Assembly (NCBI GenBank): GCA_009784425.1
Contig: WRBR01000001.1
Span: forward strand, 1-63,754
DNA length: 63,754 nucleotides
Source: Coriobacteriia bacterium
GTDB lineage: Bacteria > Actinomycetota > Coriobacteriia > Coriobacteriales > UBA8131
Direction: 5' to 3'
Shown one piece after another: positions 1,296-63,754 of this stretch. Within the stretch, counting starts at the first letter, position 1. The number at the start of each line of letters is the position of its first letter. Both the position numbers and the translations under genes were made by a program. The notes below the pieces were generated by a model, which saw only the letters and a list, made by a program, of their open reading frames with translations, was not told the origin of the DNA and searched no databases.

Positions 1296-1697
1296 ATGAC
1301 AGAAAGAACATACGCCATGCTCAAGCCCGATGCGGTTTTAGGTGGCCATGTTGGCGAGATTATCGCCCGCTTTGAAAGAGTTGGCCTCACCATTGAGAGG
1401 ATGGAGCTTGCCACGGTAACACCGGAGCAAGCCGCCGCCAACTATGCCGAGCACGAGGGCAAGCCGTTTTACGAGGGGCTCATTGAATACATCACCTCCG
1501 GCCCCGTGGTTAAGCTGGTGCTTGCAGGGGAGGGGGCAGTTGCCATCACGAGAAAACTGATGGGCGCTACCAACCCTGCCGAAGCGCTCCCGGGGACTAT
1601 CCGAGGCGATTTTGGACTGGTTATGGATGCCAATGTGATTCACGGTTCCGACTCCCTGGAGTCAGCCAAGCGCGAAATTGCGATCTTTTTTGCATAA
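1296..1697 (+). CDS. ndk: nucleoside diphosphate kinase
   Basis: 133 aa. N-terminal ERTYAMLKPDAV and NVIHGSD active-site motif are typical of Ndk. Confidence 0.93.
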   Translation: MTERTYAMLKPDAVLGGHVGEIIARFERVGLTIERMELATVTPEQAAANYAEHEGKPFYEGLIEYITSGPVVKLVLAGEGAVAITRKLMGATNPAEALPGTIRGDFGLVMDANVIHGSDSLESAKREIAIFFA

Positions 1698-1802: not shown

Positions 1803-2843
1803 ATGTCTTTTTTGGATGATTTGTTCAGCCAGTGGAGCTGCGACATGGCCATAGACCTTGGCACCGCCAACACCTTGGTGGCTATTGCCAACGAGGGCAT
1901 CGTATTAGACGAGCCCAGTGTAGTTGCCATTGACAACGAACTTAACAGGGTGTTATCGGTGGGTACCGAGGCCCGCGAGATGATTGGCCGCAATCCGGGC
2001 AATATCTCAGTTGAGCGTCCGTTGGCCGATGGTGTCATAGCCGATTACGATGTTACCGAGGCCATGCTCTCGTATTTCATCAATAAGGCAAACCCCAAGA
2101 CGCGCCTTTGGCAGCCAAAGCCGCGCATTGTCATCTGCATTCCCTGCGGCGTGACCTCCGTTGAAAAGCGCGCCGTTTTTGAGGCAACCATACAAGCCGG
2201 TGCACGCCAGGCATTTCTCATTGAGGAGCCTATGGCCGCGGCCATAGGAGCCGGCTTGCCCGTAGAAGAGCCCACGGGCTCGATGGTGGTTGACATTGGC
2301 GGCGGCACTACCGAGATTGCCGTTATTTCGCTGGGAGGCATTGTTACTTCGCGCTCCCTCAAAACGGCCGGAAACGAGTTTGATGTGGCGGTGGCCCGCC
2401 ACGTGCGTGAGGTCTACGGCCTCAACATCGGCGTCCGCACTGCTGAAGACATCAAGATAGGCATAGGCTCGGCCATGCCAATCTCAACGGGAGAGATGGA
2501 TATGGAGATATCCGGACGAGATCTCTCAACCAACCTCCCGCGCTCCGAGAACCTGCAAAGCGAAGACATCAGAGAAGGACTCAGAGCTCCACTGCATGAA
2601 ATCCTCATCGCCATTAAGGAAACATTCTTGGAGACCGACCCAGACCTGGCAGCAGACATCATAGTCAACGGCATTCTGCTCACCGGGGGAGGAGCAATGC
2701 TCAAGGAGATGGATCGCTTTTTAACCAACGCCCTGGATGTCCCCGTGTATGTATCGCCAACAGCCTTTACCAACGTAGTGGTGGGCTGTGCTATGGCATT
2801 GGAAAATCCGCAGGCACTACAGCGTTCTTATACGCAACGCTAG
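1803..2843 (+). CDS. mreB: rod shape-determining protein MreB
   Basis: 346 aa with actin-fold motifs DLGTANT and VDIGGGTTE. It is followed by mreC and mreD. Confidence 0.95.
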   Translation: MSFLDDLFSQWSCDMAIDLGTANTLVAIANEGIVLDEPSVVAIDNELNRVLSVGTEAREMIGRNPGNISVERPLADGVIADYDVTEAMLSYFINKANPKTRLWQPKPRIVICIPCGVTSVEKRAVFEATIQAGARQAFLIEEPMAAAIGAGLPVEEPTGSMVVDIGGGTTEIAVISLGGIVTSRSLKTAGNEFDVAVARHVREVYGLNIGVRTAEDIKIGIGSAMPISTGEMDMEISGRDLSTNLPRSENLQSEDIREGLRAPLHEILIAIKETFLETDPDLAADIIVNGILLTGGGAMLKEMDRFLTNALDVPVYVSPTAFTNVVVGCAMALENPQALQRSYTQR

Positions 2844-6511: not shown

Positions 6512-7738
6512 TTGCCCGTTTCTCCCAAGATACAATCGTCGCCGAGTAATCGCTCTGGCTCGCAGGGTGGTTTTCATATTGTTGCTATCTTGCGCACCCT
6601 TAACTACCCCATTGTGGTGGTATCACTGATTTTAGTGGCCTATGGCCTTTTGGTTGTGTGGTCGGCAACGCTCGATTCTAACGTCTACAGCTTTAACAGG
6701 CAGCTCTCGGGAGTGGGAGTAGGCATTATTTTGATGCTGGTGATTTGGCGGTTGAACTACAGCAGGCTCTCGGTTTTTACCTACCTGTTTTTTGGGCTCT
6801 GTATATTCTTTATTGTTTTGCCGTTGTTTCCGGTTATTGGCCTTTCCGTGGGCGGGGCTCAAAGATGGGTGGTCATCTTTGGACAACGCTTTCAGCCAAC
6901 TGAGCTGGCAAAGGCTTTTTACATCCTATTTGCCGCTGCGTTGATTGCTCGCTACAAGGGCCGCTTGACCTCCGGCACCGAATACCTCAAGTGTTTTGCG
7001 CTTTTGTGTACACCAGCGGTTCTTGTGATGATGCAGCCAGACTTGGGAACCGGTGTGGTGCTCTTTGTTATTGGAATGGTGGTGCTTTTTGCCGGCGGGG
7101 CAAACCGACGGTGGCTGATTACCAGCGTGGTTGCGATTGCCGTGCTCTGTGTTGCCCTGATTGCTCTTGACGGGGTGTTGGACGCTGCCTTTGGCAGGGA
7201 TGTCTTTCTTAAAGACTATCAAAAAGCCCGTTTACTGGTTTTTATTAATCCCGACTATGACCCCGATGGCGCCGGTTATAACCTCAGGCAGGCCCAGATT
7301 GCCATAGGGTCCGGTGGGCTTTTTGGCAAAGGCCTTGGCAATGCCACGCAAAGCACGCTCGGTTTTTTGCCTGAACACCCCACCGACTTCATCTTTTGCG
7401 TCCTGGCCGAGGAATTTGGTTTTATGGGCTCTCTTGGCCTCATCTTCCTCTATGCGATTTTGATGTTTTTAGTGCTGCGAGTGGCCTTTAACTCCTACGA
7501 TTTCTTTGGCACGCTTATTGTCACCGGCGTATTGGGGATGTGGATATTCCAGATATTTGAAAACATTGGGATGAACCTGGGGCTTATGCCCTCAACGGGC
7601 ATTCCGCTGCCCTTTATGAGCTACGGCACCTCGGCTATGCTGCTCAATTTTGTTGCACTGGGCCTGGTGCTCTCTGTGTGGGCGCATCGCAGTCCCATAA
7701 AATCTGGCGTCTCCCAGCCCGGCCGCAGGGTACAATGA
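6512..7738 (+). CDS. rodA: SEDS-family peptidoglycan polymerase RodA
   Basis: About 10 TM segments with FtsW/RodA/SpoVE-type conserved C-terminal region (GIPLPFMSYG). TTG start taken from the ORF track; the true start is uncertain. Confidence 0.9.
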   Translation: MPVSPKIQSSPSNRSGSQGGFHIVAILRTLNYPIVVVSLILVAYGLLVVWSATLDSNVYSFNRQLSGVGVGIILMLVIWRLNYSRLSVFTYLFFGLCIFFIVLPLFPVIGLSVGGAQRWVVIFGQRFQPTELAKAFYILFAAALIARYKGRLTSGTEYLKCFALLCTPAVLVMMQPDLGTGVVLFVIGMVVLFAGGANRRWLITSVVAIAVLCVALIALDGVLDAAFGRDVFLKDYQKARLLVFINPDYDPDGAGYNLRQAQIAIGSGGLFGKGLGNATQSTLGFLPEHPTDFIFCVLAEEFGFMGSLGLIFLYAILMFLVLRVAFNSYDFFGTLIVTGVLGMWIFQIFENIGMNLGLMPSTGIPLPFMSYGTSAMLLNFVALGLVLSVWAHRSPIKSGVSQPGRRVQ

Positions 7739-7784
7739 GAGTTAAGAGTTAAGAGTGGAGAAGTAAGAGTGAAGAGCGGAGAAT
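7738..7784. repeat. degenerate heptamer tract GAGTTAA GAGTTAA GAGTGGA GAAGTAA GAGTGAA GAGCGGA
   Basis: Starts at the rodA stop codon. A related tract lies at 27423-27474, and the motif recurs at the trpS stop (28575-28585). Confidence 0.8.
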
Positions 7785-7785
7785 C

Positions 7786-8715
7786 ATGGCAATACCAAAA
7801 ATACCCAAACTGCCTATAAACCTCGGCACCCTCAATAAGGCGGCCAAGCTCTTTGAGAGCGAGTCAACTGCCGATACCGTGATTGAGGTTTTGGTAGACC
7901 TCAGCGCCTCGAGTGACTTAATTTCGCTTGCTCGCGAGGTGCTCAAGGTGCGCCCAGGCACGGTGCAGATAGCCGTTGAGGGCTTTCACGACGACATGCC
8001 TCACCTCAACAGAGAAGCCAGCCTGATTATAGTGGTGGCTGGTTCGTCAAGCTACCTAAAGCGCATCATGGAGATCTCTCTCTGGTCAGAGCTCAACTGT
8101 GTTGTCTTGACAGAAGACGCCTTGCCACTGGTTTCTCAAGTAGCTGACGAGGATGCCCTCGACATTGCCAAGACTTTGATTGAAGTTGATCTCACCACTC
8201 CCAAAGAAGCGCTTGAGCAAGATCTGGCAAGGTGGTGCATCGGTCGCCTGCCCGAGTTACGTCTTTCACTGGGCGTGGCCTTTCCCTTTATGCGCCAGCC
8301 CATTGCCCTTGACCTGACCCGCCAAACCGCGTTTGAGAACACCCTCATTGCATCAATCTTCTTTTTGCCTGGGGCGGACATGCCCATCCTTACTCTGAAC
8401 CAGTGTAAATTGCTCTATCAAATAGCAGTTATTAACGAGGTTCCGCTCTCTCGTGAGCGCCTGGCGGATGCGGCAGTGGTCATTGCCTCGGCCTTTGGCT
8501 TCAGGGGCATTACACGCCTGGTTTTAAAGAGGCTCACGCCTATTGGCTGGCTGGTCAGAGGCTCAACGGCCTTTGGAGCCACCATGACTATGGGACACCT
8601 GGCGCACCAGCTCTATAGCAAGGGCGGGGGAGTGGTTGAGCTGGCAAGAGGTGACCTTTCAGCAGACGACTCTGAAGTAGTCATGCCAACAACCGCCGTA
8701 ACAAAGCTGAGCTAA
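7786..8715 (+). CDS. conserved hypothetical protein
   Basis: 309-aa ORF with coding-like composition and an AG-rich region upstream. No catalytic motif recognised. The C-terminal half is amphipathic/hydrophobic. Confidence 0.6.
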   Translation: MAIPKIPKLPINLGTLNKAAKLFESESTADTVIEVLVDLSASSDLISLAREVLKVRPGTVQIAVEGFHDDMPHLNREASLIIVVAGSSSYLKRIMEISLWSELNCVVLTEDALPLVSQVADEDALDIAKTLIEVDLTTPKEALEQDLARWCIGRLPELRLSLGVAFPFMRQPIALDLTRQTAFENTLIASIFFLPGADMPILTLNQCKLLYQIAVINEVPLSRERLADAAVVIASAFGFRGITRLVLKRLTPIGWLVRGSTAFGATMTMGHLAHQLYSKGGGVVELARGDLSADDSEVVMPTTAVTKLS

Positions 8716-8727
8716 GAAACACGCATA

Positions 8728-10647
8728 GTGATTAATCAGCACTCTCAAAGCCTGCGTTTAAAGCTTGAACCACTTCTCTCCAAGGTAGAGAAGCCTTCAC
8801 GCTATATTGGTGCTGAACTGTTTGGTGAGACAAAAGGGGACGGTTCATGTGTCCTGGTGTTGTCCCAGGACAACACCAGGACACATGAACCGTCCCCTTT
8901 TGTCTCACCAAACCCCGTCCCCCCTGTACCAAACGTCCCCCTGACAAGTCAGCTTGACGTAGCGCTTATTTACCCGGATGTGTATGAAGTAGGCGCTGCC
9001 AATCAAGCTCTGGTGATTCTCTACAACATAGCGCGCCAAATGCAAGGCGTGGGAGTTGAGCGCGCTTATCTGCCTTGGATTGATATGGCAGTACTCTTGC
9101 GTGAGGAAGGTCTGCCGCTTTGCAGCCTGGAAAGCGTGCGGCCGCTTAAGGATTTTGATGTTTTGGGCATCACCTTGGCGCATGAACTCGTTGCCACCAA
9201 TCTCTGCGAGCTCTTTGACCTTGCGGGTATTCCGCTGCTTGCCGCTGAGCGCGGCGAAGGCGTGCCCCTGATTTTAGGCGGCGGCCCCGTTGCCTATAAC
9301 CCAGCTCCCTTTGCCGCCTTCTTTGACGCCATCTGCATTGGCGAGGGCGAAGAAGCCTTTGCCGAGGCGCTGGAGGTGTTGGCGCAGGCTAAAGAGCAGG
9401 GCGCTAACCGCGCAGATCAGCTGCAAGCACTAGCCAACATCACGGGCTTTTATGTGCCCTCCCTTACGCAAAACACGGTTGAGCGCCGCATAGTGCAAAA
9501 CTTTGCCGACTATCCGGTGGTCACCAACCCCCTGGTGCCCTTTATCGAAACCAGCCAAGACCGCTTTTCGGTGGAGATTCTCAGAGGCTGTACGCGTGGC
9601 TGTAGATTCTGCGCAGGCGGCATGGTGAGCCGGCCGGTGCGTGAGCGCTCAGCCGACAGTGTGGTAGCAGCTGCCACTCAAGGCCTGGCTACAACCGGGC
9701 TTTCCGAGGTATCCCTTAATTCACTCTCAAGCACCGATCACAGCCAGATTGACCAAATACTCAGGCGCCTCACCGCTCGCTACCAGGAGACAGATATCAA
9801 GATTGGTCTGCCCTCACAAAGGCTCGACGCCTTTGGGGTTTCTATGGCAACCCTGGTGTGCGGCACCCAGAAAAAGGGCCTGCTCACCTTTGCACCGGAG
9901 GCCGGCACCCAGCGCCTCCGCGATGTCATCAACAAAAATGTCACCGAAGCTGACGTGTTAGGCGCGGTCAGCGCTGCCCACGAAGCCGGATGGCGGCGCA
10001 CCAAGTTCTACTTTATGATTGGTCTTCCTACCGAGACCGACGAGGATATCATCGCCATAACCGAGCTTGCCAACAAAGCCTACAACGCCGCCAAGGATGC
10101 CGTTGAAGACAGCGAGCGCGGCAAGGTGCGCATGAGCCTCTCTGTTGCCGTATTTGTGCCCAAGGCACATACGCCCTTTCAGTTTACCGGCCAGGTGTCG
10201 AGAGAAGAGCTGGATAGAAGGGTGCGCCTGCTTAAGGCCTCGCGCCTGCACAAAGGCATCGACCTGCACTGGCATGACCCTGCGGCCGCCATGATAGAGG
10301 CGGTATTCTCACGCGGCGATGCCCCGCTAGCCGAGCTTGGCATCAAGGCCTGGGAGCTGGGAGCACGCTTTGATGCCTGGAGCGAGCGCTTTAGCCTGGC
10401 AATCTGGCAAGAAGCTGCCGCTGCCTTGGGCGTGGAGCTTTCGGAGCTCGCCGAGCGCTCCTTTGCCGTAGACAAAGCCCTGCCCTGGGACTTTATCACC
10501 GGTGGCGTAAGCCGTGAATTTCTGGCTTTGGAATACCAGCATTCTCTCACCGGCGCCCTCACCCAAGATTGCACCTTGGGACCCTGCAGCAATTGCGGCG
10601 TCTGTGAAGGCACCGTTAAAACAGCATTGGCAGGCAAACGTGGCTGA
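8728..10647 (+). CDS. radical SAM protein (TIGR03960-like, B12-binding-like N-domain), carrying an in-frame palindromic insert near the N-terminus
   Basis: CTRGCRFC (CxxxCxxC) cluster motif. N-terminal KPSRYIG and PDVYEVG motifs are typical of this family. It is followed by its usual DUF2344 partner. GTG start. Confidence 0.88.
   Translation: MINQHSQSLRLKLEPLLSKVEKPSRYIGAELFGETKGDGSCVLVLSQDNTRTHEPSPFVSPNPVPPVPNVPLTSQLDVALIYPDVYEVGAANQALVILYNIARQMQGVGVERAYLPWIDMAVLLREEGLPLCSLESVRPLKDFDVLGITLAHELVATNLCELFDLAGIPLLAAERGEGVPLILGGGPVAYNPAPFAAFFDAICIGEGEEAFAEALEVLAQAKEQGANRADQLQALANITGFYVPSLTQNTVERRIVQNFADYPVVTNPLVPFIETSQDRFSVEILRGCTRGCRFCAGGMVSRPVRERSADSVVAAATQGLATTGLSEVSLNSLSSTDHSQIDQILRRLTARYQETDIKIGLPSQRLDAFGVSMATLVCGTQKKGLLTFAPEAGTQRLRDVINKNVTEADVLGAVSAAHEAGWRRTKFYFMIGLPTETDEDIIAITELANKAYNAAKDAVEDSERGKVRMSLSVAVFVPKAHTPFQFTGQVSREELDRRVRLLKASRLHKGIDLHWHDPAAAMIEAVFSRGDAPLAELGIKAWELGARFDAWSERFSLAIWQEAAAALGVELSELAERSFAVDKALPWDFITGGVSREFLALEYQHSLTGALTQDCTLGPCSNCGVCEGTVKTALAGKRG
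8824..8931. repeat. composite palindromic element, type A (42-nt arms) plus a type-B half-site, inside the radical-SAM CDS
   Basis: GGTGAGACAAAAGGGGACGGTTCATGTGTCCTGGTGTTGTCC / CA / its reverse complement, then AAACCCCGTCCCCCCTGTACCA. 105/108 identical to 23275-23382. Confidence 0.9.
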
Positions 10648-10650
10648 TTT

Positions 10651-10773
10651 GCTTTGGAACAGGGGGACGGGGTTAGTGTTCCAATTTGACCAAGGTCAAA
10701 TTGGAACACTAACCCCGTCCCCCTGTTCCAAAGCAAAAAGCGGGACACCAAGCCCCGTCCCCCTGTTCCAGCC
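10651..10773. repeat. palindromic element type B (41-nt arms) plus an extra half-site, between the radical-SAM and DUF2344 genes
   Basis: GCTTTGGAACAGGGGGACGGGGTTAGTGTTCCAATTTGACC / AA / its reverse complement, followed by ...CACCAAGCCCCGTCCCCCTGTTCCA. Confidence 0.9.
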
Positions 10774-10786
10774 CCCAAAGAGATAG

Positions 10787-16739: not shown

Positions 16740-16771
16740 GCACATTTGAACCTGACAGAGGGACGTATAAG

Positions 16772-16812
16772 AGCTGAGAGCACAAAGGGACCGTCCCTTT
16801 GTGCTCTCAGCT
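16772..16812. terminator. 20-bp perfect hairpin after the ABC permease gene (GGGACCGTCCC at the apex)
   Basis: AGCTGAGAGCACAAAGGGAC C GTCCCTTTGTGCTCTCAGCT. There is no clear U-tract, so its terminator function is inferred from position only. Confidence 0.5.
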
Positions 16813-16818
16813 TTGTAC

Positions 16819-16976
16819 CTCGCGGCATAGAACCGTGAGTTCGTGTGACAAATGCAGCGAAATGTACGGAAATATCCCCAAATACAACTATAAACCTATA
16901 AAAACAGGCAATAATAAGGAGAAAACCGTACATTTCGCTGCATTTGTCACACGAACTCACGCTTCTATGCCGCGAG
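16819..16976. repeat. MITE-like inverted repeat: 51-bp arms (50/51 complementary) around a 56-nt AT-rich spacer
   Basis: CTCGCGGCATAGAACCGTGAGTTCGTGTGACAAATGCAGCGAAATGTACGG at 16819-16869, with its reverse complement at 16926-16976. Confidence 0.85.
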
Positions 16977-17853
16977 ATGATTGTTGGGCGGATGGAGGAC
17001 CGTCCCTCTGTGCTCCGGAAATCTCCGCAACTACTCCTTTGATATACTCATGATTCTCCTGGTTGTCTGCAACGTAGACATCGCCAGTTGCTCCCAGCCC
17101 AAAACTGGGAAGGTTCGCAGCAACGTTAGAACTAAACAAAAAAAACACTCCCACAAAAGAGCAGATAAGATAGATGATGGGTTCATGCATCAAGAGCGGG
17201 GAGCTGTAGCGTTTCTTTTTGGTGGGAGTGGGGCTTGCTTCAGGGCTGTTGCCGTATTTTGCCTGGCAGGAGCTTGGCTTGCGCCTTCTTGTGAAGAGTG
17301 TGTAGAGCCCCATAAACAGCAGGTATCCCAGAACGGTGCCCAGTGTGTTCATAAGAAGATCGTCAACCGTTGAGCCGCGACGATTGAGAAGTTGGCTTAA
17401 CTCAATGGCAAGTGAAAAAGAAAGTCCTATGAGAGCTACCTTCTTAACTGAGCGAAGCCTGGGCCAAATGAGCGCGAGTAAAAAGCCAAGCGGAATTGTC
17501 ATGTAGATGTTGAGAAGATAGGGAGCAGTGCCAACTATGGTGCCGTCATAGGTGCCAAAGGGAATGAGATGCACCTCGCTCATGCGGATGAGGGTTTCAT
17601 ATCTGCCAATATCCCAGACGGTGCCTACCCCGGTAACTAGATACACAAGCAGCAGGTAAAACAGAAGCACGTACACCCCTGCAAAGTGCTTGGCGGTTAG
17701 AGGCTTCTCCTCGCGATGGTTTGCTTTTCGTAGAAACACAAGCTGAAATACAACACAGAGGATTGTTGCGCAGGCAAACAAATACAGCGTTAGAGGAATT
17801 GAGCTAGACAGCAAATCAAATATCCACCTGAAGATCATTTCAAGAAACTCCAT
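16957..17853 (-). CDS. VanZ-family membrane protein
   Basis: VanZ-like core (PLGFLLALIWPR, SLAIELSQLLNRRGSTVDDLLMNTLG). The last roughly 7 codons and the stop lie inside the right arm of the 16819-16976 inverted repeat. Confidence 0.8.
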   Translation of the reverse strand: MEFLEMIFRWIFDLLSSSIPLTLYLFACATILCVVFQLVFLRKANHREEKPLTAKHFAGVYVLLFYLLLVYLVTGVGTVWDIGRYETLIRMSEVHLIPFGTYDGTIVGTAPYLLNIYMTIPLGFLLALIWPRLRSVKKVALIGLSFSLAIELSQLLNRRGSTVDDLLMNTLGTVLGYLLFMGLYTLFTRRRKPSSCQAKYGNSPEASPTPTKKKRYSSPLLMHEPIIYLICSFVGVFFLFSSNVAANLPSFGLGATGDVYVADNQENHEYIKGVVAEISGAQRDGPPSAQQSSRGIEA

Positions 17854-18030
17854 AGGTAAAAGCCACTAAGGGGTCTGATTAATACAGCAGCTACACTTGG
17901 TTTGAGTGGGCGCTGATCAATTGCCCACTCAGCTGCTTAGTATATTTATTATGCCAACGCAGTTTATTAAGGATTCATTAAGATAACTCTACCCATTTCC
18001 TTAACAAAACATATAAGAGGGCATTTGAGC

Positions 18031-18110
18031 GGGACAAAAGGGGACGGTTCATGTGTCCTGCTGGTGTCCCAGGACACCAGCAGGACACATGAACCGTCCC
18101 CTTTTGTCCC
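18031..18110. repeat. palindromic element type A, intergenic copy
   Basis: Outer arms match 8824/23275 (AAAAGGGGACGGTTCATGTGTCC). The apical stem differs on both arms (CTGCTGGTGTCC/GGACACCAGCAG versus CTGGTGTTGTCC/GGACAACACCAG). Confidence 0.9.
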
Positions 18111-18233
18111 GGTGAGTCGCTGCCTACGCTCTGTTTACAGAATATTCACATTTTTGCTTTGGGAGATATGCTGTTTAGGCGATTACTGGGGTAAAATCAA
18201 TATACGTACCAAAAAAGAGATTAGAGAAGCGCT

Positions 18234-21134
18234 ATGGGCAGTGAAGAACATAATGACTTTGATGAGATTCAGGCAAAACCAGAAGAATCTAACTTATCAA
18301 CGCCGCTGGAACCAACGGCACCTTTAGAGTCGGATCAACCACCCCCACCTTCAGCGCCGACAACCTCACCGGTTTCGCCGCCATCAAAGGCGGAGTCTGC
18401 GCCGGCAACCTCACCGCTTGCGCCTCCAGCCCCGGCAGCCCCGCCGATTATTCCTCCAGCAGCGACACCCTCACCGGTTGCACCTCCAGTGCCGATAACC
18501 CCACCTGTTGCTCCTCCACCTACAGCTCCGGTTATTTCAGTAACACCTCCGCCTCCGGCAGCAGCTGTGCCGGTCACGCCTCCAGCTCCATCGACTCCTC
18601 CCGCGCAGAAGCCAACTATCGGCTCTGCAGCTGGGTTCCAACCACAGCAACCGGCAAGCATTGGGTCAGCTGCGGGATTTGCTCCTTCCCCGGCACCCCC
18701 TGCGGCAACAACACCTCCTGCGCCTCCTGCACCAACGGCACCTCTTGCACCAGCGGCACCTGCAGGCTATGCTCAGCCGCAGGGTCAGTACGTCGCTGCG
18801 CAGAGAGGGCAGTACTATCCACCTCAGCAGACATCACCTTACGGCCAACCTTACAACCAGACATACGGCCAGCCACAGAGCCAGCCTTACACTCAACCTT
18901 ACGGCCAGCCACAGAGCCAGCCTTACGGCCAAACCTACGGCCAACCTTACGGCCAAACCTACGGCCAAACCTACGGCCAATCTTACGGCCAAACCTACGG
19001 CCAAACCTACGGCCAGCCTTACGGCCAACAACCTGGGTACCAAATGCCCACGTTTACTCCTCATGCCCCGCCCGCAAAGAAAAGAAAAGCCTGGCCGTTT
19101 GTGCTGGGTGGCATGGCAGTCTTGTTTATCCTGTTTTTGGCTATGGCCGTTGCCTTGGTAATGTGCAGTTCTGATGACCCCGTATACAATACAAACAGCA
19201 GCTGGGAAGCCCTCGTTTATACCGACCACAGCGCAACTTTGGCCGAGCGTTACGACCCCAACGATACCTGGGCAATCTACTGGTATCTCTGCGGCAGTGA
19301 CCTTGAAACAGACGCTGGCCTTGCCACAATGGATCTTCAAGAGATGATGAAGGTAAAACTGCCAGAAAATGTTGTGGTCATCATAGAAGCGGGAGGCTCA
19401 AGAGTCTGGCATAACGGATTTGATCCAAATTCCAACGGCCGTTACATTTATGACAGCAACGGCTTGAGGCTCTTGGAGGACAACCCCCGCGCCAACATGG
19501 GCGATAAAAAAACCCTCATCTCCTTCTTGGAGTTCTGCACCACTAAATACCCTGCCGACCACCAGGTTGTGATTTTCTGGAATCACGGCGGCGGCAGCAT
19601 CCCGGGTGTCATCTTTGATGAGCAGTATGGCTTTGATGCCCTGAGTCTCATGGACATCAGGGAGGCCTTTAGCGCAGTAAGCACCCCTTCAACGGTAAAC
19701 CCGCCTTTTGAGTTGATTGGATTTGACGCCTGCCTCATGGCTACCATTGAAACGGCTGAGACCCTGAAGGGATTTGCCAAATGGATGGTGGCTTCGGCAG
19801 AGATGGAGCCTGGAATCGGTTGGGACTACACGGGATTCCTTCAGGCTTTGGCAAATGACACCGGCATAGGTGGCGCCATGCTCGGCAAGGAGATATGCGA
19901 CTCCTTCTACAGCGCGTGTGTTGCAATTCGTCAGGCAAATGAGGCAACACTCTCGGTAATAAACCTGCAGAAGATTGATCCTCTGTTGGATGCCTACCAC
20001 AACATTGGGGCAGAGTCGTTGCTCTTTGCCTGTCAGAATGCCTCCTACGTCAGTGACTTTGGGCGCGCGGCAGTCAAGGCTCAAGATTATGGATTCAACA
20101 ACTCTTGGGATGGTTACACCAATATGGTTGACCTGGGCGATCTGGTCCATCAGCTGGGCAGCAATCTGCTTCCTGAATATGGAGCAGAGTTGCTCAATGC
20201 CTTGGATGCATGCGTGGTGTACCAGGTATACGGCCCCTTCCGCGACAGGTCCTCCGGGCTTGCCTGCTTCTACAACTACAGCGGCAGCGTTGATGCCTTC
20301 AGAGGCTTTTCTGAGCTTCAGGCAGATAGCCCCTTCCGCTGGCTTTACTACTACGAGCTTGCCGGTACGCTCAATGACGAGGGCATCCTCTTTGTGCAAA
20401 ACCTGGCCTTTATCTACGCGCCGGACAGAACTATCGTTCCGGGCGAGGTTGAAAGTGCCGAGGAGTTTGACCTCGATGACTGCCAGGTAAGAGGCGCTGA
20501 TGATGGTTCTGTTGTCATGAATCTAGGCTCTGAGGCTGCCAGCAGGCTTACCGGTGTCTACAGTTTTCTGGCTTATTACGACGAGGATACCGGCATAATC
20601 ATCCTGCTTGGCAGGGATAACGACATCGTCAACGACTGGGAAAACGGAATCTTCAAAAATCATTTCCGCGGCGTATGGGGCTGCATTGACAACACCCTTG
20701 TCTTTATGGAGCTCACCGACGAAGCCGATGATTACCAGCTTTACTCCATACCCGTGCTTCTTAACGGCGAAGAATACTCAATATCCGTCAGTTACACCTA
20801 TGCAACCAAGGAGTACGAAATCTTAGGTGCCCGCCGTGGAATCGACGACAATGGTATGGCGGACAGAAATCTTATTCAGCTCCAGCCGGGAGACGTCGTT
20901 GAGCCCTTACACTATGTAATCTATGACACGGCGGACGCGGAGTTTGAGCAAAAGGCACTTGAGAAATTCATAGTTACAGAAAACACCCGGTTTACCGAGG
21001 AAGATCTGGGCGACGGCATATTCTTCATCCTTTTTGAGATGATTGACGTGCTGGGCAACGAATACCTGTCAGAAGCAGCAGCCTTTATCGTGAAGGATGG
21101 AGACATCTCTATCTTCACCCATGAAGACGCTTGA
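18234..21134 (+). CDS. membrane-anchored clostripain-like (peptidase C11) protein with a roughly 280-aa Pro/Gln/Tyr-rich cytoplasmic N-terminal region
   Basis: KKRK followed by [27 protein letters not shown]11-like catalytic dyad context VIFWNHGGG and [10 protein letters not shown]-terminus is low complexity with (YGQP/T)n repeats. Confidence 0.75.
18924..19030 (+). repeat. about 9 tandem 12-nt units TACGGCCAAACC encoding (YGQT/P)n within the C11 peptidase gene
   Basis: Read directly from the sequence; in-frame coding repeat. Confidence 0.9.
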
Positions 21135-23559
21135 TTTAGGTATGGCTATCGATCTTTCCAGTCTCAACTCTCAGCAATACGAGGCCGCCACAACAACCGA
21201 GGGGCCTTTGTTGCTTTTGGCTGGCGCCGGCACCGGTAAAACGCGCGCGCTTACGTATCGCATTGCCCATATGGTTGAGAATCTGGACGTTGCTCCCTGG
21301 CAGATACTGGCCATCACTTTTACCAATAAGGCCGCGGCTGAGATGCGCGAGCGCCTGGCCGACCTCCTGGGAACCACCAGGGGCATGTGGATACTCACTT
21401 TTCATGCTCTCTGCGTGCGCATTTTGAGGAATCACGGCGAGCTTTTGGGCTTTAGCCCTGGCTTCACCATTTACGATGACGACGATTCCAAGCGCTTGGT
21501 CAAGGAGATATTGACCAATCTAGACGTCAACACCTCTACCTATCCCTTGAATACTTTGCGTGGAAACATCTCTCGGGCAAAGAATGAGCTCATCAATGCC
21601 GAGGAGTATGCCGCCAGCGCAAAAAGGCCCGTTGAGAAGGTCACTGCCCGCGTTTATTGCGAGCTGGAGCGGCGTTTGCTCCAGGCAGATGCCGTGGATT
21701 TTGATGACTTGCTCTTGCATGCCTGGCGCATTCTCAAGGACTACGCCGAGGTGCTTGAGGGCTATCAGGAGCGCTTTCTTTATATCTCAATAGACGAGTA
21801 CCAAGACACCAACCACGCCCAGTACAGCATAGCCAACCTCTTAGCCGCCAAACACCAAAACATCATGGTGGTGGGCGATGACGATCAGTCCATCTACTCA
21901 TGGCGCGGCGCCGACATCCGCAATATCCTCGAGTTTGAAAAGGACTACCCGGGCGCCAAGGTCTTGCGCCTTGAGCAAAATTACCGCTCAACCTCTTTGA
22001 TTCTCGAGGCAGCCAACAATGTTATAGCCAATAACAAGGACCGAAAGGCCAAGCACCTCTTCACCAAAGGTGAACAGGGCGAGCGCATCTGTCTCTATCT
22101 TGCTAATAACGAGCGCGACGAAGGGCGCTGGATTGCCGGGGAGATTGAGCGCTTGCACCGCTCCGGTCACTCCTACAACGACTTTGCGCTTTTTTATCGT
22201 ACTAACGCCCAGAGCCGTACGCTTGAGGATATGTTGCTGCGCGCCGGTGTGCCGTATCGCATTTACGGAGGCACGCGCTTTTTTGACCGTGAGGAAATCC
22301 GTGACATCATGGCCTACCTCAAGCTCATCGTTAATCCGCTTGATGACATTGCTGCCAAGCGAATCATCAACAAGCCGCGGCGGGGGATAGGCAGCACCAC
22401 CGTCACCCGCATTGAGCAGCTGGCGGCTGACGAGCAATGCAGCTTCATGGACGCCGCCGAGCTTGCGCTGGCTGATGAGGCGCTGCCCAAGGCGGCGCTT
22501 CGCAGCGTAGGGGAGTTTGTGCAGCTCATCAAGGACCTGCGCCTCTTAATGGGTGACCTGCGCAGCATCGTGGAGATTGTTGCAGAAAAGAGCGGTCTCA
22601 TGGACTATCTGGCCTCTTTGCCCTACGAAGAGGCAATCACACGCAAGGAGAATGTACAGGAGTTCTTTGGCGTAGCTGCCGAGTTTTCGCAGCAGCATCT
22701 GGAACAGGGGGACGGGGTTGGTGCTCTGGAACAGGGGGACGGGGTTGGTGTTCCAATTCCTGCGGAATTGGAACACCAACCCCGTCCCCCTGTTCCAGAG
22801 CACCAACCCCGTCCCCCTGTTCCACGTCCCCTTGTTCCAGAAACTTCTGCCTCAACAGCGCTTATTGCTTTTATGGAGTGGCTTGCTCTCAGGAGTGACC
22901 TTGATACTATGGTGGAGGGCGAGGACTACATTAAGCTGATGACCGTGCACACGGCAAAAGGACTGGAATTTAAAATTGTCTTTATCGCCGGCATGGAAGA
23001 GGGCATCTTCCCCCACATGATGAGCATAACGGGTGGCCGCGGTGTTGAAGAGGAGCGGCGCCTGGCTTACGTGGCTATTACCCGCGCGCGCCAACTGCTG
23101 TATCTCACCAGCGCGCAGCAACGCTCGCTTTTTGGGTCGTTTTCTGCCAATCCGCTCTCGCGCTTTACCACGGAAATCCCTGCTCAGCTGCAGAGGCGCA
23201 TTGGTCTGGGCTCGCAAGGCATTCAAGGCGTTGGCTGGGAAAAGCGCGGCAGCAGGGGCGGCGTTTTTGGTGCTGGTGAGACAAAAGGGGACGGTTCATG
23301 TGTCCTGGTGTTGTCCCAGGACAACACCAGGACACATGAACCGTCCCCTTCTGTCTCACCCAACCCCGTCCCTCCTGTACCACCGGTACCCAACAAAGAC
23401 CAGACCTTTGAGGTGAACGATGCAGTTGAGCACAAGGTCTTTGGGCGCGGAACAGTCATTTCTGTTGATGAGGGCACTATTGAGGTACAATTTGATAAGA
23501 ATAATAAGACGCGCAAATTGCTTGTTGAATTTGCTCCCCTGGCCAAGATTAAAACGTAA
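21121..23559 (+). CDS. pcrA: ATP-dependent DNA helicase PcrA/UvrD, carrying two in-frame palindromic inserts
   Basis: Motifs AGAGTGKT, DEYQDTN, TVHTAKGLEF, VAITRA and a C-terminal Tudor-like tail (HKVFGRGTVISV). The start could be ATG 21121 or ATG 21142. Confidence 0.93.
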   Translation: MKTLDLGMAIDLSSLNSQQYEAATTTEGPLLLLAGAGTGKTRALTYRIAHMVENLDVAPWQILAITFTNKAAAEMRERLADLLGTTRGMWILTFHALCVRILRNHGELLGFSPGFTIYDDDDSKRLVKEILTNLDVNTSTYPLNTLRGNISRAKNELINAEEYAASAKRPVEKVTARVYCELERRLLQADAVDFDDLLLHAWRILKDYAEVLEGYQERFLYISIDEYQDTNHAQYSIANLLAAKHQNIMVVGDDDQSIYSWRGADIRNILEFEKDYPGAKVLRLEQNYRSTSLILEAANNVIANNKDRKAKHLFTKGEQGERICLYLANNERDEGRWIAGEIERLHRSGHSYNDFALFYRTNAQSRTLEDMLLRAGVPYRIYGGTRFFDREEIRDIMAYLKLIVNPLDDIAAKRIINKPRRGIGSTTVTRIEQLAADEQCSFMDAAELALADEALPKAALRSVGEFVQLIKDLRLLMGDLRSIVEIVAEKSGLMDYLASLPYEEAITRKENVQEFFGVAAEFSQQHLEQGDGVGALEQGDGVGVPIPAELEHQPRPPVPEHQPRPPVPRPLVPETSASTALIAFMEWLALRSDLDTMVEGEDYIKLMTVHTAKGLEFKIVFIAGMEEGIFPHMMSITGGRGVEEERRLAYVAITRARQLLYLTSAQQRSLFGSFSANPLSRFTTEIPAQLQRRIGLGSQGIQGVGWEKRGSRGGVFGAGETKGDGSCVLVLSQDNTRTHEPSPSVSPNPVPPVPPVPNKDQTFEVNDAVEHKVFGRGTVISVDEGTIEVQFDKNNKTRKLLVEFAPLAKIKT
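22699..22840. repeat. nested type-B palindrome (two tandem units per arm) inside the pcrA CDS
   Basis: A 62-nt left arm, TGC loop and matching right arm span 22699-22824, followed by an extra degenerate half-site to 22840. Confidence 0.9.
23275..23382. repeat. composite type A + B-half element inside the pcrA CDS (linker before the C-terminal Tudor-like domain)
   Basis: 105/108 identical to 8824-8931 and read in the same frame. Confidence 0.9.
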
Positions 23560-24584: not shown

Positions 24585-26711
24585 ATGCTTATCTGTAATG
24601 CCAGCGCTATTACCAAGTCCTTTGGCTCGCGTGTTTTGTTTTCGGAGGCAACGTTTGCCGTTAAGTCATCCGACCGCATAGCGTTGGTTGGCGCCAATGG
24701 CTCGGGTAAAACCACGCTGCTCAATATGATTGCTCAAAGAGAGTCGCAAGATAGCGGCACGCTCACCCTCGCAAAGGGCGTGAACACCGGTTATCTGGAG
24801 CAGGAAGTTTTTGGCATTTTGAGCGAGGCAAGCGTTTTAGCAAGCGTGCTTGAAGCCAAGCAGGATGTTTTAGACATGCGCGAGAGGCTTACTGTTTTAG
24901 AAGCCAAGCTGGGAGAAGATAACAACTTTAACAGCGCTGGTGAAGCAACAGACCTTGAGCATGAGCAATTGCTCAAAGAGTATGGCCGCCTCTCGGATCT
25001 TTTTGAAAACTCCGGTGGCTGGAACTTGGAATCCGATGCCATGACGGTGCTTACCGGGCTTGGGTTTAAAATGTCCGATGCTAATCGTCAGGTAAAAGAG
25101 TTTAGCGGCGGTTGGCAGATGCGCATTGCGCTTGCACGCCTGCTTTTTGCGCGCCCTGATCTGTTGCTGCTTGATGAGCCCACCAACCACCTTGATCTGG
25201 AGAGCGTGCGCTGGCTTGAGGCCTTTTTACGCAGCTACGAGGGAGCCGTTGTGGTGGTAAGCCACGACCGCGCCTTTATGGACGGCATGGTGAGCCGCAT
25301 TTGGAACATTGAGCACGAGCAGATTCATGTGTACGCAGGCGACTACACCGACTTTGAAAAGGCAAGAGAAAGGGAGCTTGAGGCCAGGCAAGCTGCCTAT
25401 GAGCGCCAAAAGGTGGAGATTGCTCAAATTGAGCTGTTTATTAACCGCTTTAGATACAAGGCTTCTAAGGCGCGGCAGGTGCAAGAAAGAGTCAAGAAGC
25501 TTGAGAAGCTTGAACGCATCAAGCCGGTGGAGGTAAAGAGCAAAATCAAGTTTCGCTTTAAACAACCGCCGCGCACCGGCGACCAGGTTATAGAGCTCAG
25601 AGACATTGCCAAGTCTTACGGCAGCACCTGCGTGTACGGCGGCGAGCATCCGCTGCTCAACCTCAAGCTCTACCGCGGTGACCGTGTGGCGCTGGTAGGG
25701 CCAAACGGCGCCGGCAAGTCCACCATGCTTAAGATTTTGGCTGGCGTTTTGCCTTTTGAAAGCGGCGAGCGCTTGCTCGGCTCCAAGGTTGAGTCAAGTT
25801 ATTATGCGCAACATCAGGTGGAGCAGCTCAAACCCGGCGCCACGGTTTTTGAGGAGCTGGAAGGGGTGACCCCCGGCTGGACTATCAGCGAGGTGCGCGG
25901 CCTGTTGGGCGCATTTCTCTTTACCGGCGACGATGTCATGAAAAAGGTGAGAGTGCTCTCTGGTGGAGAAAAGAGCCGGCTCGCGCTGGCTAAGATGCTG
26001 GTGAGCCCTGCCCCGCTACTTTGCATGGACGAGCCCACCAATCACCTCGACATTCCCTCAAACGATGTTCTTGAGGCGGCGCTGCTAGCCTTTACCGGCA
26101 CGCTGGTGCTGATTACCCACGACAGGCATCTCATCCGCAAGGTGGCCAACCGCATCATCGAAGTTGACGCAGGCCGCGTACGCGAATTCGTGGGCAACTA
26201 CGATTATTACCTACGCAAAAAAGACGAAGAAACCGGAGACCAAGCCTTTTTTATGGACGGCTCTCAAATTGCTGTTCCTGTAGATAAACCTCCGCGCGCT
26301 AAAAAGCACGCGCACAGCGATAAAGTAAGCACTGTTGGTACAAGAGGGACGGGGTTTGGTGTACCTGTTTCCTTGGAAACTGGTACACCAAACCCCGTCC
26401 CTCTTGTACCAACGGCTGGCAGTCGAAAAACCAAGGAGCAAAAGCGCCTTGAGGCAGAAGCGCGCACCCGCACCTATCGCATGTTCAAAGAAGACCGTGA
26501 GCGACTTGAGGTGCTGGAGCCCGAGCTAGAGCAGGCGCAAGAAGAATACGACCGCATCGTAGAAGCTATGGCAGACGAGGCGCTTTATAATGACAAGGAA
26601 GGCTTTGCAGCCTTGATGGACAGGTATAATGAACTCAAGCGGCTTATCCCCAAGCTCGAAGAGGAGTGGCTGGATATCACCGCCCGCATAGAAGACGAAC
26701 TGAACGGATAA
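24585..26711 (+). CDS. ABC-F family ATPase (translation-factor type), carrying an in-frame palindromic insert in the C-terminal linker
   Basis: Two ABC cassettes ([15 protein letters not shown]; [17 protein letters not shown]), no TM domain, and a C-terminal coiled coil. Confidence 0.92.
26334..26413. repeat. type-B' palindrome (GGTACA variant) inside the ABC-F CDS
   Basis: GTTGGTACAAGAGGGACGGGGTTTGGTGTACCTGTTTCC TT GGAAACTGGTACACCAAACCCCGTCCCTCTTGTACCAAC. Confidence 0.9.
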
Positions 26712-26719: not shown

Positions 26720-27421
26720 ATGGCACCCACGATATTTGGCTATTCGGCCTTGCCCTTCATTATGTTGCTCTGCTTTGTGCCCGCCATCGTAGTACACGAG
26801 GTGGCGCACGGCTTTGTGGCCTGGAAGCTGGGAGACCCCACAGCCAAAGACAGGGGGAGGCTCTCGCTCAACCCCATCAGGCACATTGACCCCTTTGGAA
26901 CGGTGATACTCCCCATAGCCTTAGCGATATATGGCGGACCGGTTTTTGGTTATGCCAAGCCGGTGCCCTATAATCCCACCTACTTCAAAGACATCAGAAA
27001 AGGCGAGCTGTTAACCGGCATGGCCGGCCCTGCGTCAAATCTCATTATGAGCATCATTGGCGCTCTCATTACCAATGTGCTGCTCTTAGTTGGAACCTTT
27101 TCCGCTGAGGTGACCATGTGGATATTCTATGGGGGCTACTACTTTGTGTTCATTAACCTCGTTTTGATGTTCTTCAACCTCCTGCCCATTCCGCCCTTGG
27201 ACGGCTCAAGCATCATTGCCATATTTCTCTCGGACAGCGCTTTGCGAAAATACTACAATGTCCAGCGCTATGCCTTGCCGATACTGCTGCTTTTGCTCTT
27301 TGTGATTCCGTGGGCTTCCAGCTCGCTTTTTGGCGTGCAATTCAACCCCATCGGCATCTATATCAGTGCCACCGCAGGTAATTTAACCGAGCTATTCTTT
27401 AGCCCAATACTCGGAGGATGA
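26720..27421 (+). CDS. site-2 protease family (M50) membrane metalloprotease
   Basis: HEVAHG (HExxH) in the first TM region and NLLPIPPLDG motif. Start moved to ATG 26720 (MAPTIFGY...). Confidence 0.85.
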   Translation: MAPTIFGYSALPFIMLLCFVPAIVVHEVAHGFVAWKLGDPTAKDRGRLSLNPIRHIDPFGTVILPIALAIYGGPVFGYAKPVPYNPTYFKDIRKGELLTGMAGPASNLIMSIIGALITNVLLLVGTFSAEVTMWIFYGGYYFVFINLVLMFFNLLPIPPLDGSSIIAIFLSDSALRKYYNVQRYALPILLLLLFVIPWASSSLFGVQFNPIGIYISATAGNLTELFFSPILGG

Positions 27422-27422
27422 G

Positions 27423-28580: not shown

Positions 28581-28582
28581 GA

Positions 28583-28760
28583 GTGGTACAGGAGGGACGG
28601 GGTTTGGTGAGTGGTACAGGAGGGACGGGGTTAGTGTACCACTTTGGCTCTTGAGCCAAAGTGGTACACTAACCCCGTCCCTCCTGTACCACCTCCTGTA
28701 CCACTCACCAAACCCCGTCCCTCCTGTACCACTCACCAAACCCCGTCCCTCCTGTACCAC
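28583..28760. repeat. nested type-B' palindrome between trpS and scpA
   Basis: Two GGTACAGGAGGGACGGGG units, an apical stem CACTTTGGCTC TT GAGCCAAAGTG, and three mirror units on the right. Confidence 0.9.
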
Positions 28761-28781
28761 TCCCAGTAAGAAACGAGAGGC

Positions 28782-30283: not shown

Positions 30284-30284
30284 C

Positions 30285-30357
30285 ATGAGTCATGGGGACG
30301 GGGAAAGTGACTCTTTTATGCAGAAAAAGAGTCACTTTCCCCGTCCCCGTGACTCAT
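30285..30357. repeat. palindrome of the GAGTCA-GGGGACGGGG-TGACTC type between scpB and rluB
   Basis: ATGAGTCATGGGGACGGGGAAAGTGACTCTTTT / ATGCAG / its reverse complement (1 mismatch). A half copy recurs at 63604-63633. Confidence 0.88.
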
Positions 30358-32112: not shown

Positions 32113-32652
32113 ATGCAGGAAGAATTCAGGATACTTGGTGTTGATCCCGGGTTGGCTAACTCAGGCTGGGGGATTATCGCTGTGCAGGGGAGTAAGCTCA
32201 GGCCGCTTGCTTATGGTTCGATTTCTACTGACTCAAAAGAGGAGCTGCCGCTGCGTTTAGCCAGGATTTATGATGAGTTTGCAGCGGTTATTCTCAAGTA
32301 TGTACCTGCCGAGCTGAGCATTGAGACTATCTACCATAAGGGCAATCCCAAGAGTTCGCTTTCAACGGCTCAGGCGCGCGGAGTGGCTCTGGTGGCTGCG
32401 GCACGCAGTTCGCTGGTGGTAAACGAGTACGCCCCTTCTGCGATAAAGCAGGCGGTGGTTGGCACAGGGTCAGCCACCAAACAGCAGGTGCAGTTCATGG
32501 TGCGGAGCCTGCTAGAGCTCAATCACACCCCCGAGCCCAATCACGCAGCCGACGCCTTGGCTGCCGCCATCTGTCACGCACACCTTCGCAGGTATAATGG
32601 TTTGGTACAGGAGGGACGGGGCTTGGTGAGTGGTACAGAGGGACGGGGTTAG
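32113..32652 (+). CDS. ruvC: crossover junction endodeoxyribonuclease RuvC
   Basis: ILGVDPG and ADALAAAICHAH motifs. The last roughly 17 codons and the TAG stop lie inside the palindromic repeat 32603-32736. Confidence 0.92.
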   Translation: MQEEFRILGVDPGLANSGWGIIAVQGSKLRPLAYGSISTDSKEELPLRLARIYDEFAAVILKYVPAELSIETIYHKGNPKSSLSTAQARGVALVAAARSSLVVNEYAPSAIKQAVVGTGSATKQQVQFMVRSLLELNHTPEPNHAADALAAAICHAHLRRYNGLVQEGRGLVSGTEGRG

Positions 32653-32736
32653 TGTACCACTTTGGCTCTTGAGCCAAAGTGGTACACTAACCCCGTCCCT
32701 CTGTACCACTCACCAAGCCCCGTCCCTCCTGTACCA
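32603..32736. repeat. nested type-B' palindrome covering the 3' end of ruvC
   Basis: Nearly identical to the 28583 element, including the apical stem CACTTTGGCTCTTGAGCCAAAGTG. It contains the ruvC TAG stop. Confidence 0.9.
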
Positions 32737-32753
32737 CACAAGGAAGGAAAAAC

Positions 32754-63541: not shown

Positions 63542-63656
63542 GTTGACCTCCCGGTTTTTTTTCAATAGTAAGGGCCTTTAGCGGCTCGTCGTAGTGTAGC
63601 ACAAGTGACTCATGGGGACGGGGAAAGTGACTCAGTGGCACAGTGGGGTCAGTTCC

Positions 63657-63754
63657 TGCCGCGTTTGCACGCAAAAAGACGACTTTTACAGCATTTTAGC
63701 CCGATTTGGGGGTTTTTTGAGCCAAAAGTCGTCTTTTTGCGTGCAAACGCGGCA
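63657..63754. repeat. inverted repeat with 31-bp perfect arms, reaching the window edge
   Basis: TGCCGCGTTTGCACGCAAAAAGACGACTTTT at 63657-63687 and its exact reverse complement at 63724-63754. Confidence 0.85.

Follow-up and report, generated by a model that had tools for sequence, protein, structure and literature searches.

The 108-nt block and its two host genes

The DNA analyzed here, from now on called the window, is a complete contig of 63,754 nt (WRBR01000001.1) from an uncultured bacterium of the Coriobacteriales, and it harbors mreBCD-pbp2-rodA, ruvCAB, scpAB and other housekeeping genes. Two of its genes, encoding a radical-SAM protein and the helicase PcrA, respectively, contain almost the same block of 108 nt, composed of a long hairpin and a short 3′ tail, which is the subject of this report. 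The two genes and the parts of the block are the following.

8728..10647, plus strand: intact gene for a TIGR03960-type B12-binding radical-SAM protein of 639 amino acids (aa) (Pfam Radical_SAM_N2 and Radical_SAM)
8820..8913, plus strand: family-1 hairpin, a doublet of two inverted units GACAAAAGGGGACGGTTCATGTGTCC resembling a REPIN (a hairpin-forming doublet of repetitive extragenic palindromes, REPs), in the radical-SAM gene in phase 0
8906..8931, minus strand: one family-2 unit (the reverse complement of GGTACAGGGGGGACGGGGTTTGGTGAG) that is joined to the hairpin and completes the 108 nt
21097..23559, plus strand: intact pcrA/uvrD helicase gene with two palindromic inserts (Pfam UvrD-helicase, UvrD_C and PcrA_UvrD_tudor)
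23275..23382, plus strand: second 108-nt composite, made up of hairpin 23275-23360 and family-2 unit 23357-23382, in the linker that precedes the Tudor domain of PcrA

In a pairwise comparison, 8824-8931 and 23275-23382 shared 105 of the 108 nt, as the preliminary description of this DNA had stated; the three mismatches, at element positions 77, 87 and 99, are silent in two cases and exchange F for S in the third. Both copies are read in phase 0 of long open reading frames (ORFs) as the peptide GETKGDGSCVLVLSQDNTRTHEPSP(F/S)VSPNPVPPVP, which makes up residues 33-68 in ORF 8728-10647 and residues 727-762 in ORF 21097-23559; a tryptic peptide of the translated insert is GDGSCVLVLSQDNTR. The arms of the radical-SAM copy (8820-8865/8868-8913) are 46 nt long and 100% complementary, those of the pcrA copy (23275-23316/23319-23360) 42 nt long and 98% complementary, and the first hairpin, when folded as RNA, has a free energy of -91.9 kcal/mol (z = -14.5 vs shuffles). 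The 26-nt tail, CTCACCAAACCCCGTCCC(C/T)CCTGTACCA, is one reverse-complement unit of a family with the core GGGACGGGG, so that the block is indeed a hairpin fused to a half-site, as first described. The block comprises 36 codons; the 86-nt hairpin on its own would cause a frameshift. As far as can be read from the sequence, the stretch just after the block in the radical-SAM gene (8932-8945, AACGTCCCCCTGAC) resembles a further degenerate unit.

In two loci from other contigs (L018 and L026) family-2 units flank a family-1 hairpin symmetrically, and the 108-mer is a composite of this type without the left outer unit. The left outer unit is missing from both gene copies, which also agree in their apical variant, TGGTGTTGTCC, and in their outer stem, GGTGAG. 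This common asymmetry, apical variant and outer stem indicate that the copies derive either from each other or from one master; they were not put together independently. Synonymous positions are also common to both copies, which argues for recent copying rather than convergence. Judged by sequence divergence, 2.8% between the two copies vs a dS (synonymous substitutions per site) of ~1.5-2 to the nearest relative, the transfer of the block between the radical-SAM gene and pcrA was recent.

Host proteins and insertion sites

The radical-SAM insert is located between the motifs KPSRYIG and YPDVYEVG and the PcrA insert between the end of UvrD_C (aa 674) and the Tudor domain (aa 773-817), in accordance with the placement given in the preliminary description. 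The nearest relatives of both proteins are from uncultured Coriobacteriales and are 70-76% identical. In alignments with orthologues at 50-76% identity the insert was absent from all 45 radical-SAM proteins, a comparison that had been proposed together with the first description, and from all 27 PcrA proteins. The insertion points of both proteins are hypervariable in length and sequence among the orthologues. The AlphaFold model of the radical-SAM protein has a mean predicted local distance difference test score (pLDDT) of 84.7 and a predicted template modeling score (pTM) of 0.87, and its sole long segment with a pLDDT <50 is aa 36-68, which is the insert. The insert peptide is thus predicted to be disordered, and the suggestion that both sites tolerate length variation is borne out by the hypervariable loops in the orthologues.

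The cysteines of the CxxxCxxC motif of the radical-SAM protein (C288/C292/C295) are invariant. When compared with a syntenic relative (L030), the ratio of nonsynonymous to synonymous substitutions (dN/dS) was 0.08 for PcrA and 0.05 for an ABC-F ATPase that also carries an insert (see below); these low values and the complete domains show that the host genes are under purifying selection and functional. The same insert was found in a protein encoded on an independent 14,861-nt NCBI contig. Two readings that would undo the idea of an insertion had been raised at the outset. That the hosts are pseudogenes was ruled out by the intact ORFs, the complete domains and the low dN/dS; that the segment is a conserved protein domain was ruled out by its absence from the homologues. 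What had been proposed, namely that a palindromic repeat was inserted in frame in functional genes, is supported by the orthologues without the insert, by the intact hosts and by further copies, which are intergenic or in other genes.

A superfamily of nested palindromes

Within the window 6 copies of the 19-mer core from the family-1 hairpin (0.01 expected) and 23 copies of GGGACGGGG (0.44 expected) were counted; within the 64 kb there are 34 GGGACGG cores. The palindromes make up ~10 clusters, which form one superfamily with nested hairpins. Four clusters out of ~10 lie wholly within genes, of which pcrA contains two and the radical-SAM and ABC-F genes one each; a further cluster overlaps the 3′ end of ruvC. 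A comparison with Rfam yielded zero family matches in the window.

The basic unit is a small stem-loop with a stem of 5-9 bp and a loop of 13-17 nt that contains the invariant GGGGACGG. The stems differ between sub-families and are always complementary: GGACA/TGTCC, GGTACA/TGTACC, GGAACA/TGTTCC and GAGTCA/TGACTC, and in a relative CTCAC/GTGAG. Two inverted units give a long perfect hairpin, and hairpins nest within hairpins. When nine 86-nt hairpins were aligned, 97.6% of the cells were paired; nine pairs were altered on both sides and none on one side only, and G-U was found in 1 of 378 cells. In slid controls of the alignment pairing always fell to ~40-45%. The near-absence of G-U wobble indicates palindromy at the level of the DNA rather than selection on an RNA fold, and points to a single-stranded DNA or cruciform substrate, or to one arm templating the other, as its source. 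The third, intergenic copy that had been reported at the outset is present at 18030-18111, with an apical stem altered on both arms. That both arms change together, then taken as covariation, thus stands, but with such strict Watson-Crick symmetry of the DNA it is no proof of an RNA structure.

The other palindromes of the superfamily in the window are listed below.

22700..22824, plus strand: family-2 composite palindrome, two nested layers of GGAACAGGGGGACGGGGTTGGTG units, pcrA aa 535-576
26334..26413, plus strand: family-2 palindrome in the ABC-F ATPase gene (24585-26711), aa 584-610, in frame, 39-nt arms 97% complementary
18030..18111, no strand assigned: intergenic family-1 hairpin with a different apical stem, 40-nt arms 100% complementary
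10648..10775, no strand assigned: intergenic family-2 palindrome (10648-10737) with one extra unit, 44-nt arms 100% complementary
28581..28762, no strand assigned: intergenic multi-layer family-2 palindrome directly after the stop codon (28578-28580) of gene 27558-28580
30285..30357, no strand assigned: family-3 palindrome, unit GAGTCATGGGGACGGGGAAAGTGACTC, between scpB and a pseudouridine synthase gene, 33-nt arms with at most one mismatch
32600..32739, no strand assigned: multi-layer family-2 palindrome in the end of ruvC and the ruvC-ruvA spacer, 69-nt arms 99% complementary
63603..63754, no strand assigned: composite palindrome truncated where the contig stops; L009 shares its family-3 unit and the layer next to it

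The second insert in pcrA (22700-22824) has 61-nt arms that are 100% complementary, is translated as LEQGDGVGALEQGDGVGVPIPAELEHQPRPPVPEHQPRPPVP and lies within a variable acidic loop; a degenerate extra unit carries it on to ~22842. The insertion site in the ABC-F gene is the linker preceding the C-terminal coiled coil. Several intergenic copies adjoin genes closely. The one at 10648 begins 1 nt past the stop codon of the radical-SAM gene, that at 28581 follows a gene for a class-I W/Y tRNA synthetase, probably TrpS, and that at 30285 begins 2 nt past a stop codon. The last overlaps ORF 30243-31172, whose true start codon is probably downstream of the palindrome, since the S4 domain starts only at aa 43. 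The hairpin at 18030-18111 has as neighbors a VanZ gene (16957-17853, minus strand) and a Peptidase_C11 gene (18234-21134).

The gene ruvC (32113-32652) receives its stop codon and the ~17 codons before it from the element at 32600-32739. Since the RuvC Pfam domain stops at aa 155 of 179, the palindrome has seemingly replaced or extended the C-terminus of the protein. The outer layers of the composite at the contig end (GAGTCA...GGGGACGGGG...TGACTC, then CAGTGGCACAGTGGGGTCAGTTCCTGCCGCGTTTGCA) recur in L009 (999-1200) around a family-1 hairpin, where the inner hairpin differs from that in the window. The same outer layers around different inner hairpins indicate that layers are combined in a modular fashion.

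Whereas nine clusters lie between 8.8 and 32.7 kb, no GGGACGGGG-family element was found in the 30 kb from 32800 to 63600. In this stretch, possibly acquired at a later time, are an MmeI-type restriction-modification gene (35906-38728) and genes for two giant repeat proteins (46249-52041, with 342-345-nt repeats, and 56916-63089).

Copies in other contigs, gain and loss

A metagenome scan revealed 26 further loci with hairpins, whose apical stems vary but are always complementary, single units and head-to-tail arrays. Single units or head-to-tail arrays are found in L012, L014, L020, L023 and L024. Many of the 26 loci are located at contig ends, which is expected of a high-copy repeat. Two of the copies lie in genes verified with Pfam: in birA (L007) the hairpin is in frame (RTKGDGSCVLVLSQDNTRTHEPSPFV) directly before the KWPNDI strand and in the same phase as in the window, and in hypF (L016) a shorter hairpin is in frame in another phase. 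In a collection of species-representative genomes a scan with the 19-mer found no copy of the hairpin. It gave three single non-hairpin matches, of which two, in high-GC actinomycetes, are due to chance and one is a unit in a metagenome-assembled genome of the Coriobacteriales. Searching with a peptide of 44 aa yielded no candidates sharing a word with it.

In the syntenic relative L030 the site at which the ABC-F gene of the window carries its insert is empty, and a different palindrome is present at another ABC-F site, which in turn is unoccupied in the window. Ahead of the Tudor domain, the PcrA linker of L030 contains a different palindrome of 96 nt, and there is a degenerate unit at the first PcrA site. 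From this pattern of presence and absence it follows that gain and loss of the elements take place on the timescale on which species diverge, with repeated hits in the same tolerant linkers. The palindromes of L030 (6280-6350 and 4620-4720) represent further sub-families, with CTCACGGGGACGGTTCTCGTGAG in ABC-F and GGGGGACGGAGGTAC in the 96-nt palindrome of the PcrA linker.

Reading frames and selection

Of the three frames of the element two are free of stop codons, on either strand, as had been noted in the first description; the full hairpin thus offers two open frames per strand. That first description had also pointed out that the block is read in the same frame in two unrelated genes. The phase is 0 in both, but with only two frames open two copies will share a frame with a chance of ~0.5, and the agreement is by itself uninformative. 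In the radical-SAM gene, pcrA and birA, which contain the three full-length coding copies, the phase is always GDG, for which the chance is ~0.25, and the copies in hypF and ABC-F are read in other phases and yield unrelated peptides.

More telling is the comparison of intragenic with intergenic copies. Four to six of the six frames are open in the former and zero to four, no better than in shuffles, in the latter; the two family-2 intragenic copies are open in 6/6 frames (p ~0.01-0.02 vs palindromes with shuffled arms). Where the inner units of intergenic palindromes have the stop-containing (TAG/CTA) GGGGTTAGTG, the intragenic units have GGGGTTGGTG or GGGGTTTGGTG. This contrast, together with the length of 36 codons, fits the survival of only those insertions that are in frame, stop-free and in tolerant loops. 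For the second open frame (VRQKGTVHVSWCC...) a search against 1.84 billion representatives, which covered cluster representatives only and had a low sensitivity, gave only two domain-less, probably spurious ORFs and two unrelated repeat proteins, and thus no evidence at this sensitivity that the frame is used in real genes.

A candidate transposase

Locus L014 harbors an ORF (1665-2426) whose 254-aa product contains HFH as its HUH motif as well as the motif Y..QNP, matches Pfam Y1_Tnp above the cut-off (E = 6e-12) and has a C-terminal extension of ~110 aa. The ORF is accompanied by units of the superfamily, three direct ones upstream (1437-1519, plus strand) and an inverted one just downstream (2442-2470, minus strand), all of which share the 20-nt core CAAAAGGGGACGGTTCATGTG with the element of the window. 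This arrangement is the “REPtron” layout reported for REP-associated tyrosine transposases (RAYTs) (PMC2817692, PMC3733652).

About 750 nt upstream of these flanking units L014 contains six units in the same orientation (430-690, GCCAAAAGGGGACGGTTCATGTGGCAC), and between this cluster and the flanking units there is a small pair of antitoxin-like ORFs. A second RAYT candidate, in L013 (tblastn E = 0.03), proved to be spurious when the ORF was inspected.

Origin of the block

We consider it likely, with a probability of about 0.7, that the 108-nt block, in an uncultured lineage of Coriobacteriales, is a REP/REPIN-like mobile element, palindromic and non-autonomous, which is mobilized by a RAYT and, within genes, filtered by selection. 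Mobilization would most likely be in trans by a transposase of the RAYT type (IS200-like, HUH/Y1), acting on single-stranded hairpin DNA without target-site duplication, and we infer that this genome encodes an active enzyme of that kind. Of the copies entering genes only those that have a length divisible by three, are free of stop codons and are in length-tolerant surface or linker segments would persist. The survivors would be transcribed and read through as part of the protein, giving a disordered Pro/Gly-rich peptide of ~36 aa that is probably functionless by itself. Being very stable, the hairpin may in addition influence translation or the stability of the mRNA, with RNase III-type cleavage or slowing of ribosomes at the 42-46-bp stem as possible side effects, and intergenic copies could stabilize the 3′ end of mRNAs.

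Several findings weigh against this explanation. There is no transposase gene in the 64-kb window; the sole RAYT-like gene found sits on a contig of 3 kb from another sample with unassigned taxon, its best NCBIfam match, REP_Tyr_transpos, has 68.6 bits and is thus below the 80-bit cut-off, and its product is without a sequence match in the PDB. The terminal GTAG tag of classical REPs is missing, and the CGTC in the core is internal rather than at an unpaired end. The 108-nt copies are asymmetric, with an outer unit on one side only, which is not expected under a simple REPIN model. No close (>90% identical) relative was found to have an empty site, and the linkers have diverged too far from those of L030 for empty-site junctions, so that insertion boundaries and target sites cannot be defined. 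Finally, translation through a hairpin of -92 kcal/mol is assumed.

An alternative is that no dedicated transposase takes part. The block would then have spread through ectopic recombination, gene conversion or template switching during replication, in each case between repeats already present, and the palindromes would be kept by intrastrand templated repair. In its favor, the strictly Watson-Crick pairing suggests that one arm serves as the template for its partner. Homology for such events could come from the 3′ end of the 108-mer, which is a unit of an abundant family, the two 108-nt copies are just 14.4 kb apart, and CGTC-type REPs have been reported without a dedicated transposase (PMC3733652). 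We nevertheless regard this route as unlikely: the left flanks of the two copies have no homology and consist of conserved host codons (AELF and GAG), a family at many unrelated loci and with several sub-families in different contigs needs a mechanism of dispersal, and a RAYT-like gene flanked by units exists. Less probable still is a classical miniature inverted-repeat transposable element (MITE), that is a deletion derivative of an insertion sequence (IS) with a DDE transposase, moved by cut and paste via terminal inverted repeats (TIRs) and leaving target-site duplications. The element is short, palindromic, multi-copy, non-coding and found both between and within genes, and in-frame insertions of MITEs are known (PMC10969869). 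Yet the palindrome is perfect over its whole length, not at the termini alone, none of the copies read is bordered by direct repeats, and single units and head-to-tail arrays, which a TIR-defined MITE does not form, exist. In ~200 kb of loci examined there was no DDE transposase with matching ends; the only transposase adjoining units is of the Y1/HUH type.

We give little credence to the idea that the block is a module useful to the host, either a flexible Pro/Gly-rich linker or an mRNA hairpin that sets expression (RNase III site, translational pause) and is kept by selection rather than spreading selfishly. Intergenic copies are located directly past stop codons, where REP-like hairpins can stabilize or terminate transcripts, the hairpin is extremely stable, and inserts recur in the same PcrA linker in L030. 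The palindromes in this linker of L030 are, however, unrelated to that of the window, indicating a tolerant site rather than a required sequence, and the peptide is predicted to be disordered and absent from all orthologues. Related copies in other phases give unrelated peptides, the common synonymous positions indicate recent copying instead of convergence, and almost no G-U pairs are found. That the in-frame inserts are unreal, because the assembler joined reads through a repeat, can practically be dismissed. The contig does end in a repeat and many related contigs break at the element, but on both sides of each copy there is unique coding sequence that matches orthologues and keeps the frame; moreover, the insert is also present in the protein on the separate 14,861-nt NCBI contig, and on contigs of other samples birA and hypF likewise contain this hairpin in frame.

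Comparison with known palindromic repeats

Ogata and coworkers reportedly described the Rickettsia palindromic elements (RPEs) RPE-1 to RPE-10 in 2000 and 2002. RPEs are palindromic repeats inserted in frame in genes (reviewed in PMC10969869). The elements of the window are like them in being palindromic repeats of 100-150 bp that are found in frame in unrelated housekeeping genes as well as between genes, in encoding a peptide where the fold tolerates it, in the coexistence of several families and in that one gene can hold two inserts. They differ from RPEs in their host, which belongs to the Coriobacteriia (Actinomycetota) rather than to the Alphaproteobacteria, and in their unrelated sequence; in addition, their hairpins are perfect, much more stable and built of nested short units, and there is a candidate link to a transposase, whereas the mechanism by which RPEs are mobilized is unknown. 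The relation thus appears to be one of analogy, and given the host phylum membership in an RPE family is unlikely.

REPs of the GTAG/CGTC families (Di Nocera et al., 2013, PMC3733652) are also short palindromic units, often in inverted pairs and some of them within genes. Intragenic REP dimers encode 20-30 aa, UvrD/Rep helicases are among the frequent DNA-repair hosts, and some genes were struck twice (PMC3733652). These REPs are mostly extragenic, just 3′ of ORFs, and the intragenic share in the window (4/10 clusters) is far above that usual for REPs. The GTAG and CGTC families are defined by an unpaired terminal tag beside a stem of 8-13 bp with a loop of 4-5 nt (PMC3733652), whereas the units described here have the conserved GGGGACGG, i.e., CCGTCCCC, inside a loop of 13-17 nt or inside the long stem. 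Their doublets are perfect, and multi-layer nesting is the rule. The units contain no GTAG, and the CGTC within CCGTCCCC is not an unpaired terminal tag. Lacking this tag, the repeat is not a member of the GTAG or CGTC families as defined. No families from Actinobacteria are listed in PMC3733652, from which the word is absent.

With REPIN-RAYT systems (Bertels and Rainey, 2011, PMC3116915; Nunvar, 2010, PMC2817692; Bertels, 2017, PMC5581495) the elements share the inverted doublets that form a hairpin, which in those systems is the replicating entity, the absence of target-site duplications and, on contig L014 but not in the window, a Y1/HUH gene flanked by inverted units. In those systems, however, REPINs are extragenic and imperfect, and the RAYT-like gene found here is below the NCBIfam cut-off for RAYTs. 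A strong association with REPINs has been reported for RAYT groups 2 and 3 of Gammaproteobacteria. ERIC and Correia elements and cyanobacterial MITEs (PMC10969869, PMC2229807) are small non-autonomous repeats as well, and are occasionally fused in frame to ORFs, but they have TIRs, target-site duplications and a parent DDE IS, none of which was seen here.

We came across no account of this repeat family, or of any REPs from Coriobacteriia, in the literature searched. The family is new in sequence and in host lineage, but the phenomenon, that of RPEs and intragenic REPs, is known, and no new category of biology is opened. Some novelty lies in the perfect, very long nested hairpins, in the high intragenic fraction and in the candidate RAYT link for a CGTC-containing coding palindrome. 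The range of in-frame coding palindromes is thereby widened beyond Rickettsia and a small number of Proteobacteria and Verrucomicrobia, to a gut lineage of uncultured actinobacteria. The selection filter can be seen unusually clearly, the intragenic copies being stop-free, a multiple of three in length and in disordered loops, and a RAYT-like Y1 transposase becomes a candidate for a class of repeats whose mobilization is unknown. In practice, such repeats break metagenome assemblies, inflate protein lengths and can give rise to spurious ORF calls or to spurious homology of proteins that are unrelated.

As a tentative and rather doubtful extension, the elements might belong to a REPIN-RAYT-type system of gut-type Coriobacteriales that has not been described before, in which the transposase would read the loop motif GGGGACGG/CCGTCCCC, with CGTC inside, on a small covarying hairpin. 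Copies would prefer the apex of existing hairpins and thereby build up multi-layer palindromes, and coding loops would be colonized at an RPE-like rate. This would be the first transposase link for CGTC-containing coding palindromes and, if true, would suggest a mechanism for RPE-like elements in general.

Other features of the window

A terminator-like palindrome with the apex AAAGGGACCGTCCCTTT is found at 16770-16814, ~30 nt downstream of the stop codon of an FtsX-permease gene. It is followed by an inverted repeat of 51 nt (16819-16869/16926-16976, 98% complementary) around an AT-rich spacer of 56 nt, which may be another small mobile element. Purine-rich short repeats of the GAGTTAA/GAGAGAA type are located directly upstream of gene starts at 7737-7787 and 27411-27475, with similar ones ahead of the element at 28570.

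The Peptidase_C11 (clostripain-like) protein encoded at 18234-21134 has N-terminal Pro-rich repeats of 30 nt (18348-18518) and ~18 tandem repeats of 12 nt encoding YGQP/YGQT (18828-19040). A direct repeat of 121 nt (40193-40313/56752-56872), whose two copies are 16.5 kb apart and 88% identical, is unrelated to the palindrome families.

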